This document shows positions 2,145 through 49,598 of a stretch of 64,000 nucleotides of DNA, in pieces. Position numbers and translations under genes: made by a program. The stretch covers positions 62,642 to 126,641 of the forward strand of contig DASRDX010000009.1 of the NCBI GenBank assembly GCA_035652395.1, given 5' to 3'. This DNA is from Minisyncoccota bacterium (GTDB taxonomy: Bacteria > Patescibacteriota > Minisyncoccia > Phycocordibacterales > CAJBRS01). The notes under the pieces are model-generated. The model made no database searches and was not told the origin of the DNA. It saw nothing but the letters and a program-made list of their open reading frames with translations. Numbering within the stretch: the stretch's first letter is position 1; the number at the start of each line of letters is the position of its first letter.

Positions 2145-4064
2145 CTAAACTCCCAAAAGTACCGGAATGACAATCGGCCGTTTAGCCGTTTTCTGAAAGA
2201 GAAATTTGCCGACCGCATCAGCGACGTTGTTTTTGACGTACTCGAAATTAATCGGATGCATGCCAGCAGTGTTTTCTTCAATAGTTTTTTTAATGACGAA
2301 ACGAGCTTGTCTTAATAAGTCTTGGGATTCACGCAGGTAAACAAAACCGCGAGAAATAATATCGGGAGATTTTTTCAATTTACCGGTTTGGGAATTAACG
2401 ATGGCAAAGACGATAAACATCCCATCCTGCGCCAGCATCTGCCGGTCGCGGATGACAACGTCCTGCATATCTCCAATGGCGAAACCGTCTACCATCACCG
2501 TTCCCGACGGCGCTTTTTCTTTTAAGGCCACAATCTTTTGACCCTTATCCTGAATTTCTACTACGGTACCATCATCCGGCACGATAATATTATTTTTTGG
2601 AATGCCCAGATTCTCCGCCACTTCAGCATGTAGTTTCAAGCGGTAATGGTTACCGTGAATAGGGATAAAGAATTTTGGACGGAGCTTCCGATGAAGCCAT
2701 TCAATTTCTCCACGATTGCCGTGACCGGTCGAGTGAATGTAGACGTCCGAAGTCTGAATGGAAATTATCTTGGCCCCGAGACGCGCCAGATTATCCTTTA
2801 ACTTTTCCACCGACCTTTCGTTGCCCGGCACAATGGAAGAGGATAGTAAGACGGTATCGCGTTCATTAATATGGAAGTGCTTGTGAGTTTTGGTGCCCAT
2901 GCGCATCAGAGCGGCAAATTCGTCGCCTTGAGCGCCGGTGGCCAGAACCACAATCTTATCCGGCGGATAATCGCCCATGTTTTGAGAGGAAATAACTGTG
3001 CCTTTTTTAATTTCCAGCATTTTAGCCTGCTCCAGAATATCAATATTATTTTTCATACTGCGGCCCTCAATTACCAGTTTTTTGCCATATTTCTCACAGG
3101 CTTCTATTACTTTCATCATGCGCAAAATATGAGAGGCAAACATTCCGATAATTAGACGCCCTTTAATAGTGCGGATGATTTCGTCCAGATTTTTATGGAC
3201 TTCTTCTTCCGGCGTAGAAAAACCCGGATTCTCAATATTGGTTGATTCGCCCAGAAAAAGCAGCACTTTTTCTTTGGCAAGTTCCGAATACTCTCGATCT
3301 TCCTCTTCTACCGGCTCTCCGTCTTTATGAGTTAATTTAAAATCTCCGGGGTTCACAATGAGACCATAAGGTGTTTCCACCACTACGCCCATTGAGTCGG
3401 GAATACTGTGAGTGACTCCGAAAAATCTCACAGACATGTTGCCGATTTTAATCCGGTCATTTTTTTCTACAATCTTGTAGTCAATGGGGGCTAAATGCGG
3501 AAACTCGGCCTGCCTTTTCTTAATCATGAAGGCGGTGAGGTTTCGAGTATAAAGTGGAGGATTGCCAATTTTGTCCATGATGTAGGGAATGCCGCCGATA
3601 TGATCGAGGTGACCGTGAGTAATGATGACGGCCCGAACTTTTTCCTTTCGCTCCTCCAGATATTTGGTGTTGGGCAGAATGTAATCAATGCCCGGAGTAT
3701 CTTCCTCCTTGAATTTAAAGCCGATATCAATGACGATAATGTCGCCATTAATTTCAATAACCGTCATGTTCTTGCCGATTTCTTCTACTCCGCCAAGCGG
3801 AATAATCCGGATATTTTCGCCGACAGGCGGAATTTTACCGGTTTCTTTTCGGCGTTCCATTTCAAGGGTGGGGCGCGTCGGCGCGAAGCGCCGACGCGGC
3901 ATTGATCTTTTTTTCTTGGCCATAGGTGCCTCCGGCACGGCATGATAGGTGCGAGAACGCCGTCGCGAAGAATGAGCATGATGCTCACCTGGGGCGACCT
4001 GTTTTTCCTGAACTTCTTTGATAGCTTCTTTCAGACTGTCTTTTTTTTCTTTTTCTTCTTTCAT
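2145..4064 (-). CDS. rnj: Ribonuclease J (beta-CASP metallo-beta-lactamase RNase) with a basic low-complexity N-terminal extension
   Basis: IRIIPLGGVEEIGKNMTVIEINGDIIVIDIG...HGHLDHIGGIPY matches the RNase J / MBL HxHxDH motif. An alternative later start is possible (MAKKKR or MERRKETG). Confidence 0.85.
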   Translation of the reverse strand: MKEEKEKKDSLKEAIKEVQEKQVAPGEHHAHSSRRRSRTYHAVPEAPMAKKKRSMPRRRFAPTRPTLEMERRKETGKIPPVGENIRIIPLGGVEEIGKNMTVIEINGDIIVIDIGFKFKEEDTPGIDYILPNTKYLEERKEKVRAVIITHGHLDHIGGIPYIMDKIGNPPLYTRNLTAFMIKKRQAEFPHLAPIDYKIVEKNDRIKIGNMSVRFFGVTHSIPDSMGVVVETPYGLIVNPGDFKLTHKDGEPVEEEDREYSELAKEKVLLFLGESTNIENPGFSTPEEEVHKNLDEIIRTIKGRLIIGMFASHILRMMKVIEACEKYGKKLVIEGRSMKNNIDILEQAKMLEIKKGTVISSQNMGDYPPDKIVVLATGAQGDEFAALMRMGTKTHKHFHINERDTVLLSSSIVPGNERSVEKLKDNLARLGAKIISIQTSDVYIHSTGHGNRGEIEWLHRKLRPKFFIPIHGNHYRLKLHAEVAENLGIPKNNIIVPDDGTVVEIQDKGQKIVALKEKAPSGTVMVDGFAIGDMQDVVIRDRQMLAQDGMFIVFAIVNSQTGKLKKSPDIISRGFVYLRESQDLLRQARFVIKKTIEENTAGMHPINFEYVKNNVADAVGKFLFQKTAKRPIVIPVLLGV

Positions 4065-6748: not shown

Positions 6749-8401
6749 ATGGCCAAAAGAATTATATACAATGAGGAAGCTCGAAAACTTTTAAAAAATG
6801 GCGTTGATGCAGTAGCTAACGCCGTCAAAATTACTATTGGCCCGCGTGGCCGTAATGTGGTGTTGGACAAAGGTTACGGAGCGCCAACTATTACTAATGA
6901 TGGGGTTTCAATCGCCAAGGAGATCACTTTGGAAGATAAATTTGAAAACATGGGGGCGGAGATTATTAAAGAAGTGGCTACTAAAACTAACGAAACAGCC
7001 GGAGACGGTACCACCACTTCAGTTATTTTGGCCCAGTCTATTATTAATGAAGGAATGAGGCATACCACCATGGGAGTAAATGCCATGGCTCTTCGCTCCG
7101 GTATTGAGAAGGCGACTGCCGATGTGGTTAAGGCCCTCCAAAGCATTGCCAAACCGATTAAAAATAAGGAGGAAATCAGACAAGTTGCCACTATTTCCGC
7201 CGAATCAGCTGAAATTGGCAAGTACATTGCCGACACTATTGATAAGGTAGGGAAGGACGGAGTGGTAACGGTGGAAGAATCTCAGACTATTGGTATCGAT
7301 TCGGAAGTGGTGGAAGGTTTGGAATTTGATAAAGGTTATGTTTCGCCGTACCTCATCACTAATACCGAAAGAATGGAGGCGGAATATCGGGATCCAGCCA
7401 TTTTAATTACTGACAAGAAAATTTCTACGGTTAAGGAAATTTTACCGCTTCTCGAAAAACTGGCCCAGAGCGGTAAGAAAGATCTTGTTATTATTGCTGA
7501 AGACGTTGATGGTGAAGCACTGGCCACCTTCATTGTTAATAAACTGCGGGGCGGTTTCAATGTCTTGGCTGTTAAAGCGCCGGGGTATGGCGATCGTAAA
7601 AAAGAGCAGCTTGCTGACATTGCCATTACTGTCGGTGCGCAGGTGATTTCAGAGGAGCTTGGAGTAAAACTTGAAAATGCCGAGCTCAATATGCTTGGCC
7701 GCGCTAATCGAGTGGTAGCTACTAAAGATAATACGATTATTGTCGGCGGCAAAGGTAAGAAAGCTGATATTGAAAAGCGAGTTTCATCACTGAAGAAACA
7801 GCGCGAAGCCAGTGATTCCAGTTTTGATAAAGAGAAGCTCGAAGAGAGAATTGCCAAACTTTCCGGCGGGGTGGCTGTTATTCGAGTGGGGGCGGCCACG
7901 GAGACGGAAATGAAATATTTGAAATTGAAAATTGAAGATGCCGTCAACGCCACCAAAGCGGCCATCGCTGAAGGAATTGTGGCCGGAGGTGGAAGCGCTT
8001 TGGTGCGTGTGGCCGAGATGATTGGTCGCGGCCACAAAACCAACAGAGCGGCCGCGGCCTCAAACGCCGAAGCCGATCTAGGCTACAGCATTGTTATCCG
8101 AGCTCTCGAGGAGCCGCTTCGACAAATTGCTCTAAACTCTGGCAAGGACGACGGCTCGGTGATCGTGGAAAAAGTAAAAAGCGGCAAAGGTAATGCCGGC
8201 TACGATGCCATGAAGGATGAAATCGTGACCGATATGATAGCGGCCGGAATTATTGATCCGGTAAAGGTGACTCGAAGCGGTATTCAGAATGCCGCCAGTG
8301 CTGCCGCCATTCTCTTAACTACGGAAGTGGCCATAGCTGATCTGCCGGAAGAGAAGAAACCTGCCGCAGGGATGGGCGAGATGGGAGGAATGGGATACTA
8401 A
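6749..8401 (+). CDS. groEL: Chaperonin GroEL
   Basis: MAKRIIYNEEARKLLKNGVDAVANAVKITIGPRGRNVVL...AEGIVAGGG..., with a C-terminal GGMGY tail. Confidence 0.97.
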   Translation: MAKRIIYNEEARKLLKNGVDAVANAVKITIGPRGRNVVLDKGYGAPTITNDGVSIAKEITLEDKFENMGAEIIKEVATKTNETAGDGTTTSVILAQSIINEGMRHTTMGVNAMALRSGIEKATADVVKALQSIAKPIKNKEEIRQVATISAESAEIGKYIADTIDKVGKDGVVTVEESQTIGIDSEVVEGLEFDKGYVSPYLITNTERMEAEYRDPAILITDKKISTVKEILPLLEKLAQSGKKDLVIIAEDVDGEALATFIVNKLRGGFNVLAVKAPGYGDRKKEQLADIAITVGAQVISEELGVKLENAELNMLGRANRVVATKDNTIIVGGKGKKADIEKRVSSLKKQREASDSSFDKEKLEERIAKLSGGVAVIRVGAATETEMKYLKLKIEDAVNATKAAIAEGIVAGGGSALVRVAEMIGRGHKTNRAAAASNAEADLGYSIVIRALEEPLRQIALNSGKDDGSVIVEKVKSGKGNAGYDAMKDEIVTDMIAAGIIDPVKVTRSGIQNAASAAAILLTTEVAIADLPEEKKPAAGMGEMGGMGY

Positions 8402-12124: not shown

Positions 12125-12305
12125 TTTGTTTAAAAATCCGAGGGGATTCGCCCGCGAGTAAATTTTTGCTACCCGCAAAAATTTCTCTGGGCACCGGCTC
12201 GCGGCCTCGCGTGCTCGCTCGGCATCCGCTCCGCCATTCGAATCCCTCCCTCTCAGAGTCAGACGCCTTGCCGCAGAGTGATGCAGATCACTCTTTGCAA
12301 GTCGT

Positions 12306-39587: not shown

Positions 39588-39980
39588 ATGCGGGAATTTC
39601 GAGAACGTAAAAAAATTAAGAAGCGCATCTATTCCAAGACAGTGGTAATAATTTTAGCTATTTTACTTGCTCTTTTAATTGAAGGGACCTGGAAAGTTTT
39701 CCAAAAAGAACGGGAGAGTGCGGCCAACTTGTGGCGAGTTAATAACCAGCTTTCGGAACTTCAGGCTCGAAATACCGCCCTGTCAGATGATGTGGCGGCC
39801 CTCCAGACTGATCAGGGGATTGAGAGTGAGATTCGCAGCAAATATCAGGTGGCCAAGTCAGGGGAGCAGGTCATAGTCATTGTGGACAAGGATAATACAG
39901 CTAGTTCAACTCCTCCCGGTAATTTCTTAGTCCGCTGGTGGGATAATTTTCTTAGTCTTTTTAAAAGAAAGACTAAATAG
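39588..39980 (+). CDS. ftsB: Septum formation initiator family protein (FtsB/DivIC-like)
   Basis: Single N-terminal TM then coiled coil NQLSELQARNTALSDDVAALQTDQGIESEIRSKY. Confidence 0.6.
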   Translation: MREFRERKKIKKRIYSKTVVIILAILLALLIEGTWKVFQKERESAANLWRVNNQLSELQARNTALSDDVAALQTDQGIESEIRSKYQVAKSGEQVIVIVDKDNTASSTPPGNFLVRWWDNFLSLFKRKTK

Positions 39981-40024
39981 CGAGATTAGTTCAATGGTAG
40001 AACACATGCTTCCCACCCCGACAG
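39980..40024 (+). pseudogene. Truncated 5' half of a tRNA-Gly-like gene (acceptor, D-arm, anticodon 5' stem and loop only)
   Basis: GCGAGATTAGTTCAATGGTAGAACACATGCTTCCCAC, then a non-tRNA sequence. Parallel to the intact tRNA-Gly 8 nt downstream. Confidence 0.6.
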
Positions 40025-40031
40025 TAAAATT

Positions 40032-40102
40032 GCGAGTGTCGTATAGTGGTAATACGTCTGCTTCCCAAGCAGATAACGCGAGTTCGATTCTCGCCACTCG
40101 CA
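40032..40102 (+). tRNA. tRNA-Gly (anticodon CCC)
   Basis: GCGAGTGTCGTATAGTGGTAATACGTCTGCTTCCCAAGCAGATAACGCGAGTTCGATTCTCGCCACTCGCA, a cloverleaf with T-loop TTCGATT. Confidence 0.85.
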
Positions 40103-40139
40103 CTAATGTTAGATTCGCAATTTACCACAGGATAAGAGC

Positions 40140-40315
40140 ATGAAATTGGTTCAATAATTCTATGGCAATAAGCCTAACACTCGAATATTCGGACTATGAG
40201 AAATGTTTTTCCCGTATCTCGCACTTTACAGAGTTCGATAATTCTATGGCACCGAGCCCCAATATACGAATATTCGGACGATGAGAGATATTTTTCTCGC
40301 CACTCGCACTAATTA
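40140..40315 (+). repeat. Two degenerate tRNA-derived repeat units (about 87 nt each) containing TAATTCTATGGCA and CGAATATTCGGAC; unit 2 ends with a 19-nt copy of the tRNA-Gly 3' end
   Basis: 40151-40195 and 40231-40280 share GTTCGATAATTCTATGGCA...CGAATATTCGGAC. 40296-40314 TCTCGCCACTCGCACTAAT is identical to 40090-40108. Confidence 0.6.
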
Positions 40316-41981: not shown

Positions 41982-42065
41982 AGTTAAATGGGAATCTAAA
42001 CGAACAACAAAGCGGCTGCCAAAGGCAGCCGCTTTGTTGTAGTATGTATGATGTCCTTCTTATCC

Positions 42066-42110
42066 GCCCTCGTAGTTCAATGGAGAACAACACCCCGCCT
42101 AAGGGTATAA
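42066..42110 (+). pseudogene. Truncated 5' half of a tRNA-Arg-like gene
   Basis: CCCTCGTAGTTCAATGGAGAACAACACCCCGCCTAAGGGT parallels positions 1-45 of the adjacent tRNA-Arg but lacks the T-arm. Confidence 0.55.
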
Positions 42111-42116
42111 TTATTT

Positions 42117-42189
42117 GCTCCTGTAGTTCAACGGATAGAACGGATCCGTCCTAAGGATTTAATGTAGGTTCAATTCCTACCAGGAGCAC
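42117..42189 (+). tRNA. tRNA-Arg (anticodon CCT)
   Basis: GCTCCTGTAGTTCAACGGATAGAACGGATCCGTCCTAAGGATTTAATGTAGGTTCAATTCCTACCAGGAGCA. Confidence 0.8.
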
Positions 42190-42218
42190 AAGCCAGAAAT
42201 CTGAACCCCAATAATAAT

Positions 42219-43383: not shown

Positions 43384-43456
43384 GCCGAGGTAGCTCAGTT
43401 GGTAGAGCATTTGCCTGAAGAGCAAGGGGTCGCCGGTTCGAGCCCGGCCCTCGGCA
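43384..43456 (+). tRNA. tRNA-Phe (anticodon GAA)
   Basis: GCCGAGGTAGCTCAGTTGGTAGAGCATTTGCCTGAAGAGCAAGGGGTCGCCGGTTCGAGCCCGGCCCTCGGCA. Confidence 0.9.
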
Positions 43457-43500
43457 CTAAAATAATAACCGCCAATTCTAATTGGCGGTTATTATTTTAG
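43457..43500. terminator. 21-bp perfect palindrome after tRNA-Phe (bidirectional terminator-like)
   Basis: CTAAAATAATAACCGCCAATT CT AATTGGCGGTTATTATTTTAG. Confidence 0.6.
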
Positions 43501-43607
43501 TGCCGTAAAGTCCGTATAGCTTAAGCAATTATGTGGCAAGAAGCTATTAACCTCCAAAATTCAAACAATGAGAAGTATTTTCCGGCCCTCGACTTTGTAT
43601 AATTGAT

Positions 43608-49366: not shown

Positions 49367-49439
49367 GTGCGCGGTGAGGGATTCGAACCCCCGGCATCAA
49401 CAACGTCAATGTTGCGCTCTACCAACTGAGCTAACCGCG
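49367..49439 (-). tRNA. tRNA-Val (anticodon GAC)
   Basis: rc: GCGCGGTTAGCTCAGTTGGTAGAGCGCAACATTGACGTTGTTGATGCCGGGGGTTCGAATCCCTCACCGCGCA. Confidence 0.85.
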
Positions 49440-49524
49440 CCTTTTATGAAATTTACCATTTTTCGGCGATAGAGGAAAAAGTTTTACCACAGTTTGCCAC
49501 ATACCTTGGAGTATCGGGCCTTCT

Positions 49525-49598
49525 TGCCATAGAATTACTCTTCACCTCTAACATCAACCACGTCAATGTTGCGCTCTACCAATTGAGCTAATCGCCCT
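49525..49598 (-). pseudogene. Truncated tRNA-Val 5' half followed by TAATTCTATGGCA-containing sequence
   Basis: rc of 49549-49598 is GGGCGATTAGCTCAATTGGTAGAGCGCAACATTGACGTGGTTGATG, then TTAGAGGTGAAGAGTAATTCTATGGCAAGAAGGCC. There is no T-arm. Confidence 0.6.

Follow-up and report, generated by a model that had tools for sequence, protein, structure and literature searches.

A decaying tRNA-Arg(CCU) remnant beside an intact tRNA-Arg gene in a Minisyncoccota genome, and the nested tRNA cassettes to which it may belong

Integrative elements that target tRNA genes, such as prophages and genomic islands, carry the 3' portion of the gene together with an integrase and leave a 3' fragment kilobases away. 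The anticodon loop and the T-loop are said to be the classic crossover sites of such elements. The disrupted tRNAs of archaea, whether interrupted by bulge-helix-bulge introns, split as in Nanoarchaeum or permuted, rely on a bulge-helix-bulge endonuclease for which we know of no bacterial counterpart. Bacterial 23S rRNA genes harbor intervening sequences, extended stem-loops that RNase III excises without religation. In Patescibacteria, group I introns have been described at the 35/36 site of tRNA genes (Nakagawa et al. 2026, PMC13011429), in a study that mentions no pseudogenes, duplicates or T-loop inserts. The subject of this report is a tRNA-like fragment that lies immediately upstream of an intact tRNA-Arg(CCU) gene in a 64,000-nt stretch of a Minisyncoccota bacterium genome (the whole stretch is called the window below). 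The fragment is what is left of the 5' part of a second tRNA-Arg(CCU) gene, no longer functional and in decay, and the evidence suggests that a DNA segment with a complete tRNA of the same anticodon replaced or invaded that gene.

The host is a bacterium, with a class A RNase P RNA and a window G+C content of 43.5%, and ARAGORN and Rfam agree on seven tRNAs in the window, tRNA-Arg(CCT) among them (Table 1). The relic reads GCCCTCG TA GTTC AATGGA GAAC AA (C)ACCC CGCCTAA GGGT(A), with CCT in the anticodon position of its anticodon arm, and has no variable loop, T-arm or acceptor 3' strand. Apart from those of the intact gene, no T-arm or acceptor 3' strand was found within 150 nt downstream, and a search for a remnant of either in the spacer beyond the intact gene gave a best score of 6, against a shuffle mean of 6.2. 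A hidden Markov model (HMM) built from 38 Paceibacteria tRNA-Arg(CCT) genes matches positions 42066-42111 over model positions 1-47 (E=3.2e-4, nhmmer, in a 1.3-Mb search space of related DNA), which bears out the reading, made in a first-pass annotation, of a 5' partial tRNA-Arg(CCU) pseudogene without a T-arm. The resemblance to the adjacent tRNA claimed there also exceeds chance when aligned formally, with a local alignment score of 19 against 7.4 +/- 1.5 for dinucleotide shuffles, of which 1 in 2000 scored as high. The Rfam tRNA model gives no match to the relic even at E<=10, as is expected for half a tRNA, and neither ARAGORN nor Rfam calls a tRNA within 42066-42116.

Signs of decay are plentiful. 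When the relic is compared by eye with tRNA-Arg genes of the type found in L074 (labels beginning with L are our own, for sequences used in comparison), four indels and no substitutions separate the two across positions 8-45: a 2-nt deletion in the D-loop, a 2-nt insertion, and the loss of U33 and of one stem G. Position 33 is a G and not a U, and the anticodon stem is weakened. Four indels within one fragment mark it as a decaying relic, and it shows all that defines a truncated tRNA pseudogene, namely partial similarity to its family, no possible cloverleaf, and decay. It is, in short, tRNA-Arg-derived, truncated and riddled with indels.

The relic and the intact gene are different alleles. 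Two syntenic sister genomes, GCA_038215155 (L001/L009) and GCA_017881075 (L003), share with the window the gene order MurJ, LepA, DivIC, pilin, glutaredoxin, methyltransferase, HSP20, PrsW, ValRS and TsaD; their methyltransferases are respectively 72% and 68% identical to that of the window. Each sister has a single tRNA-Arg(CCT) between the glutaredoxin and methyltransferase genes, with the acceptor GCCCTCG/CGAGGGC (CGGGGGC in L003), and in neither does a tRNA-like leader fragment stand upstream of it. The acceptor strand of the relic, GCCCTCG, is exactly that of the syntenic gene in both sisters; its first 19 nt are those of L001, and positions 1-25 match L001 save for the 2-nt deletion. The intact window gene, with the acceptor GCTCCTG/CAGGAGC, is unlike the sister genes in both acceptor and T-arm. 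Anticodon stems differ as well: that of the relic, ACCC/GGGT, is still paired and belongs to the ACCCC/GGGGT type of L074, L012 and L031, from which by eye it departs by indels only, whereas the intact neighbor has GATCC/GGATT. By one similarity measure the relic agrees with L031/L033 at 38 of 42 positions and with sister L009 at 36, while a separate alignment gives 38 matching columns with L001/L009 and 35 with the intact neighbor, so that the neighbor is not its closest family member, as it would be for a tandem duplicate. The differences in acceptor strand and anticodon stem imply that the relic was not copied from the intact gene, and the earlier designation of that gene as its parent does not survive. 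The GATCC anticodon stem was considered as a marker of the vertical copy in the clade of the window, and was dropped upon finding the same stem in unrelated metagenome alleles.

Table 1. Coordinates of features at the Arg, Gly and Val loci of the window
Feature	Position	Strand	Remarks
Terminator-like hairpin after glutaredoxin-like gene	42008..42041	+	in 84-nt stretch upstream of relic
tRNA-Arg(CCU) relic, 5' part	42066..42107	+	acceptor 5' strand, D-arm minus 2 nt of D-loop, CCT anticodon arm
AT-rich linker, relic to intact tRNA-Arg	42108..42116	+	9 nt
Intact tRNA-Arg(CCU), presumably functional gene	42117..42189	+	ARAGORN; Rfam tRNA 64 bits
Spacer, intact tRNA-Arg to methyltransferase start codon (42219)	42190..42218	+	29 nt
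Resident tRNA-Gly(CCC) piece 1, positions 1 to ~35, sister type	39980..40013	+	
Insert in anticodon loop of resident tRNA-Gly	40014..40133	+	left end CACCCCGACAG
Resident tRNA-Gly pieces 2 and 3	40134-40155 and 40210-40224 (region 40134..40224)	+	
T-loop insert between tRNA-Gly pieces 2 and 3	40156-40209	+	54 nt, begins AATTCTATGGC
Extra T-arm and 3'-end piece of foreign-type tRNA-Gly	40231..40309	+	second AATTCTATGGC insert copy at 40240-40294
Sister-type tRNA-Val(GAC), complete but interrupted	49464..49597	-	pieces 49544-49597 and 49464-49476
T-loop insert in sister-type tRNA-Val, replacing part of loop	49477-49543	-	67 nt, AATTCTATGGC family
Intact tRNA-Val(GAC), other allele type	49367..49440	-	GCGCGGT/ACCGCGC

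The Arg locus is not alone. Profile searches for partial tRNAs over 83 loci with 256 tRNAs turned up nine tRNA loci where a partial copy adjoins an intact gene with the same anticodon; the window accounts for three of the nine. This amounts to three of the six testable window tRNAs against 6/247 in the 82 related loci (Fisher p=6e-4), a frequency out of the ordinary even among relatives. The earlier suggestion that recurrence within the window reflects a systematic process and not random decay is supported. The count of three among seven tRNA loci holds; the description of all three as bare 5' halves does not, since at Gly and Val 3' parts lie further downstream, beyond inserts. Throughout the 83 loci 5' fragments are always upstream and 3' fragments always downstream of the intact gene, on the same strand, which is what nesting predicts. 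A separate case came to light in L024, where two halves of tRNA-Glu(UUC) (7916-7951 and 8262-8306) lie ~310 nt apart in a locus with no intact tRNA-Glu; in all probability the gene contains an intron such as those reported in Patescibacteria.

The window Gly locus is nested. Its first piece has the acceptor of the sisters, GCGAGAT, and its start falls on the DivIC-like stop codon, precisely where the L001 gene starts. The insert in its anticodon loop bears an intact tRNA-Gly(CCC) of foreign type at 40032-40103, an allele (GCGAGTG/CACTCGC) held in common with L037, L010 and L030. Beyond the insert the outer 3' part that completes the outer tRNA is present, and pieces 1-3 combined agree with the tRNA-Gly of L001 at 57 of 69 nt; their T-stem is read as broken, and we therefore take the resident gene to be decaying. 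An undamaged equivalent exists in L030, where a resident tRNA-Gly is split at 35/36 by a ~250-nt insert with a tRNA-Gly of the GCGAGTG type and the resident halves, when joined, make a perfect tRNA. The locus also contains an exact direct repeat of 15-16 nt, made up of the tRNA-Gly 3' end and the TAAT that follows (40089-40103 and 40295-40309, 190 nt apart), which has the look of an att-type duplication superimposed on the nesting.

At the Val locus the interrupted sister-type gene has mismatches at 31-39 and 1-72, and the intact gene is of another allele type. In L001/L009 the roles are swapped, with the GCGCGGT-type tRNA-Val interrupted and the GGGCGAT type intact. Given their stem defects, the interrupted Gly and Val copies are both judged to be decaying. 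At each of the two loci the broken copy is of the sister type and the intact copy of a foreign type. The inserts of 54-67 nt found here and at Gly form a family of their own: they are AT-rich, start with (T)AATTCTATGGC and end in a T-run, and comprise the three window copies of Table 1 and a fourth at L001 12465-12529 on the minus strand. Their place is always within a tRNA T-loop or immediately behind it (Gly twice, Val), and the exact AATTCTATGGC motif is restricted to the window genome and its nearest sister, save for one more exact match in L032 that has no tRNA-like flank. Searched with Rfam at a permissive threshold, the Arg, Gly and Val regions yielded intact tRNAs and terminator-like noise only, with no intron match in Gly or Val.

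Further parallels come from metagenomes. Contigs were scanned for two tRNA-Arg D-arm motifs 20-50 nt apart, which returned at least 120 stretches; about half were unrelated tandem repeats and were set aside. The remainder comprise at least 66 non-redundant cases in which an intact tRNA has a 5' fragment of its own type directly before it, and among the matches listed these are mostly Arg-CCU, with Arg-UCU, Arg-CCG, Arg-GCG, Gly-UCC, Met and Ile also represented. In 43/66 (again among the matches listed) the inner tRNA lies between complementary GC-rich arms and is nested in a loop of the outer tRNA; in one example the arms are CCCGCCCGACTCGCCTGAC and TAGACGAGTCAGGCGGGCGGG, and the rest of the outer tRNA follows the second arm. 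Break points fall in loops, at 21/22 in the D-loop and at 35/36 and 37/38 in the anticodon loop, the 35/36 inserts including those of L030 (Gly), L094 and L141 (Arg-UCU) and L198 (Arg-CCG). The inserts measure 80-300 nt, their arms extend 12-22 nt on each side of the inner tRNA, and the tRNA is their sole gene. When arm, inner tRNA and arm are deleted, an ARAGORN-valid outer tRNA with the same anticodon results in at least 16 cases; left as they are, the outer genes, fragments and interrupted copies are missed by this standard finder.

Some outer tRNAs hold further small inserts or several layers (L100, L171). Across the whole 1.4-kb contig L139, a unit made of 5' part and arm recurs in identical form at least four times in succession, and in the arrays of L139, L171 and L100 serial units of this kind are followed by one inner tRNA-Arg and then by matching units of arm plus 3' part. 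Such Russian-doll arrays suggest a cassette that has inserted repeatedly into its own tRNA. Identical nested loci occur in L103, L142 and L202. The direction of change can be read in L133, the neighboring genes of which are Patescibacteria-like: relatives with RmuC proteins 82-89% identical have an uninterrupted tRNA-Arg at the same locus, its body the same as the outer gene of L133, so the insert came second. Here a cassette inserted into a resident tRNA gene in one lineage. Two relatives of L133 have further genes at or near their tRNA-Arg/tRNA-Ala locus, a large serine recombinase adjacent to it in one (L215 1-1203) and a LAGLIDADG endonuclease in its vicinity in another (L209 213-587).

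Two variants of the arrangement deserve mention. Inserts of ~19-36 nt that have no tRNA, for example CCTGTCCGCTTCTGGCAGA, occur at 37/38 of the outer tRNA-Arg in L129, L130 and L092 (in the latter two downstream of the inner tRNA), and share an arm-like motif with the tRNA-bearing cassettes. In L101 (~2300-2500, minus strand) an inner tRNA-Arg(UCU) itself has a hairpin insert in its T-loop (CCCCGTCATACGACGGGG...), with no uninterrupted copy visible at the locus. Arm pairing is equally good on both strands, showing no strand asymmetry, and for that reason a DNA inverted repeat and an RNA helix are indistinguishable.

The metagenome cases can be arranged as a decay series, from loci with both arms and an outer 3' part, through those with a left arm only (L097, L132, L143), to those with an armless AT-rich linker (L138, L140, L146, L147). 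It is into this last class that the window Arg locus falls, the layout of fragment, AT-rich linker and intact tRNA being found in all four of its other members. As in the nested loci, a complete inner tRNA with the same anticodon lies directly downstream of the outer 5' part on the same strand. The flank duplex energy at the Arg linker (TATTT) is +0.4 kcal/mol, as against -12 or lower in 43/66 metagenome cases among the matches listed.

How do these cassettes compare with systems already described? With integrative elements they have in common a tRNA gene as target, incoming tRNA sequence that keeps a working gene, a scar in the form of a partial copy, and break points in loops. They differ in bringing a complete tRNA, in stranding the 5' part a few nucleotides upstream, in their small size and in holding no other gene. 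The archaeal disrupted tRNAs likewise have breaks at 37/38 and in the D- and T-loops, GC-rich complementary flanks, related inserts at one position in different tRNAs, and multiple interruptions. Unlike them, the cassette insert holds a whole tRNA, the window outer copies are decaying, and no bulge-helix-bulge geometry is apparent by eye, the arms being flush to the junctions in L094 and L133 (no formal motif scan was made). The hosts of the cassettes are moreover bacteria, as the class A RNase P and the bacterial neighboring genes attest.

Group I introns resemble the cassettes in occurring in Patescibacteria, in lying at 35/36 in some instances and in making genes that ARAGORN misses. The introns are ribozymes, whereas the cassettes are short and tRNA-bearing; and a C precedes the cassette insert, where a U is said to precede the group I intron. 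An intron-containing tRNA gene of this kind was rejected for the window, the Arg locus having no 3' exon and the Gly and Val regions no Rfam intron match. The intervening sequences of bacterial 23S rRNA are also long helices inserted in the gene for a structured RNA, and by analogy hint at a possible route for release of the inner tRNA; a tRNA nicked in its anticodon loop, in contrast, would not decode. No description of nested or split tRNAs in Patescibacteria was found in the literature searched, the coverage of which was incomplete, so this is absence of evidence only.

We consider it probable that a tRNA-carrying insert displaced a resident gene, of which the Arg relic is the remnant. Because the arms and the outer 3' part are missing, a cassette mechanism at Arg is something we infer from the neighboring Gly locus and the wider metagenome pattern. 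In what appears to be a common process among Patescibacteria, of which the relic would be a local instance, a unit of arm, complete tRNA and complementary arm would land in the loop of a resident gene for the same isoacceptor (at 21/22, 35/36 or 37/38), and the tRNA of the cassette would make good the damage to the resident gene. At Arg, a short non-coding segment with a complete tRNA-Arg(CCU) would have inserted or recombined into the resident gene just after the anticodon arm, thereby stranding the resident 5' part upstream, and the 3' part would have been lost simultaneously or afterwards. The incoming copy would be the one now used by the cell, and the relic would be transcribed at most as a leader that RNase P takes off.

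Several observations weigh against this history. GC-rich arms, CCCG...CGGG termini and an outer 3' part are all lacking at the Arg locus, and the break point there, at about position 45, is a rare one, found otherwise in L121 only among the matches listed. Which Arg copy is the vertical one is ambiguous, positions 8-44 of the intact gene being identical to L003 while the acceptor and D-arm of the relic are identical to L001. The closest genome stands at 72% protein identity, so the event cannot be dated and no empty Arg site can be demonstrated. The flanks of the foreign-type tRNA-Gly cassettes in the window, L030, L010 and L037 are by eye dissimilar to one another, and no transposase or recombinase is tied to the cassettes.

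Among the alternatives, the one that fares best, though we regard it as unlikely, needs no mobile cassette. Homologous recombination on one side, with a foreign tRNA-Arg and its downstream flank, would have been completed by an illegitimate join inside the resident tRNA, so that the resident 5' part ended up beside the foreign gene. The premise is that these bacteria take up DNA and that tRNA genes are islands of near-identity between diverged genomes, and type IV pilin-like genes do lie near the Arg locus. The absence of arms, terminal repeats and an outer 3' part there is in keeping with this alternative, as is the mosaic look of both Arg copies relative to the sisters. So is the occurrence of the AT-linker class in a human-gut contig, L147 (L140 is similar), where an upstream TAnnTTTG-like motif was read as Bacteroidetes-like, no taxonomy having been run. 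One-sided recombination leaves unexplained, however, the strict loop positions and conserved complementary arms of 43/66 related cases among the matches listed, as well as the nested Gly locus 2 kb away, and the methyltransferase downstream of the Arg locus looks orthologous to that of the sisters, with the same start.

Among the explanations offered at the outset was tandem duplication. Here the resident tRNA-Arg would have been duplicated in place, after which the upstream copy was truncated and decayed while the downstream copy diverged or was gene-converted; this is disfavored. The two copies are indeed on the same strand, 9 nt apart, with 35 matching positions, and in other genomes the fragment is identical to its neighbor (over ~33 nt in L069 and at 35/35 positions in L121). 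Yet three acceptor pairs, each fully compensated, and about two pairs of the T-stem set the intact copy apart from both sisters, although between the sisters, which have diverged to a comparable extent, the tRNA-Arg hardly varies, and the anticodon stem of the relic is of a different, still-paired type. At Gly and Val, too, the copies are clearly of different allele types, each with relatives elsewhere. A simple tandem duplication fits none of the three loci.

The other initial proposal, an integration-site duplication, would make the relic the scar of an integrase-mediated att-site duplication from an element since lost, and is very unlikely. In its favor, tRNA genes are classic targets, breaks in the anticodon loop and T-loop are reputedly typical of such crossovers, the 3' end of tRNA-Gly is repeated exactly over 16 nt at a distance of 190 nt downstream of that gene, and a large serine recombinase lies beside the related tRNA locus in L215. 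But with known elements it is the 3' part that is duplicated, at the distal end of several kilobases of inserted DNA, whereas the relic is a 5' part only 9 nt upstream, with no element present; and excision by an integrase would restore the gene, not leave half of it. No integrase-like gene stands out by eye among the open reading frame (ORF) translations for 38-46 kb, family scans not having been run and elsewhere only ORF coordinates being listed.

We give slightly less credence still to a functional fragment, either a tRNA-like 5' leader that aids processing of the downstream tRNA or regulates it, or a first exon from which the insert is removed at the RNA level. The layout recurs in many genomes, and many outer tRNAs are perfectly foldable once the insert is taken out. 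Set against this are the four indels of the relic, its weakened anticodon stem, its G for U at position 33 and its lack of a 3' partner strand, along with the stem mismatches of the outer Gly and Val copies of the window and the absence of such a leader from the sister genomes. Least probable of all is that assembly wrongly merged two strain variants where they share a conserved tRNA sequence, for though this is a metagenome-assembled genome, the relic is four indels away from any simple variant, the contig spans 462 kb, and comparable architectures occur in many contigs from different samples and sources (JGI, ENA, NCBI), for example the identical L103, L142 and L202.

The surroundings of the Arg locus have some features of their own. 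A TATAAT hexamer straddles the junction of relic and linker (42106-42111), and a sigma-70 scan found this lone hexamer and no full promoter in the relic. The spacer that precedes the methyltransferase is just 4-8 nt long in the sisters, and the 84-nt stretch upstream of the relic has no counterpart there, the gap being 13-16 nt. Inverted repeats around the intact tRNA-Arg amount to a short AT-rich match, judged by eye to be due to chance. The left-arm motif CCYGCCCG has four matches in the window, none near a tRNA and all apparently inside ORFs, while the right-arm motif CGGGCRGG has none.

Other structured elements are found near tRNAs. A conserved GC-rich element of ~75-105 nt was seen in L009, L010, L011, L019, L021, L025, L037, L038, L045, L051 and L063, usually in the T-loop of relic tRNA pieces (the D-loop in L063) or in a hairpin formed from an inverted copy of the tRNA 3' end. 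Its core consists of CGGAG, a hairpin, GAGnCGGGGUCGC, a second hairpin and GUGACCGA. It folds as a three-way junction in which compensatory changes are seen at 14 of 22 pairs and a single G.U pair stays the same in 11/11 copies, and it has the appearance of a structured RNA or mobile mini-element not yet described; Rfam gives no match for it, and no Rfam family was found in the L021 copy or in the window Gly and Val regions. Hammerhead, HDV-like and group II domain V readings were dropped on inspection by eye for want of support. A related element lies downstream of tRNA-Ser(GGA) in the window (12137-12262, minus strand), with an inverted copy of the tRNA-Ser T-arm and acceptor 3' strand (GAGAGGGAGGGATTCGAA) followed by GGCGGAG, a hairpin, CGAGCCGGTGCCCAGAG, a hairpin, ACTCGCGGGC and then GAATCCCCTCGG; it resembles one beside tRNA-Ser in L018. 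At 43453-43505 the last bases of tRNA-Phe lie within a near-perfect palindrome of ~50 nt (GGCACTAAAATAATAACCGCC ... GGCGGTTATTATTTTAGTGCC), probably serving as a bidirectional terminator that extends into the gene at its 3' end.

A bolder reading of the nested layout, which we regard as unlikely, is that it may be more than the scar of a DNA parasite and may serve bacteria to encode two tRNAs per transcript. The inner tRNA would be freed by RNase P and RNase Z and the arm helix removed, and the outer halves would be rejoined or would work as a non-covalently split tRNA. If true, this would amount to protein-dependent tRNA splicing or split tRNAs in Bacteria, and the fragments in the window would be defunct representatives of a system still in operation in other members of the phylum.

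Taken on its own, the Arg relic is an ordinary pseudogene, and its interest lies in the process behind it, which looks like a new variant of tRNA-gene invasion. The recurrent pattern, in which tiny non-coding inserts with a complete tRNA of the same anticodon invade the loops of Patescibacteria tRNAs, is undescribed in the literature searched. Once the resident copy decays, the insert can no longer be lost without harm, and such an insert would be a minimal addictive selfish element. For annotation, the pattern means that tRNA finders overlook outer genes, fragments and interrupted copies alike. For the genomes themselves, which have one gene per isoacceptor, the cassettes would offer a route for horizontal replacement of tRNA alleles.

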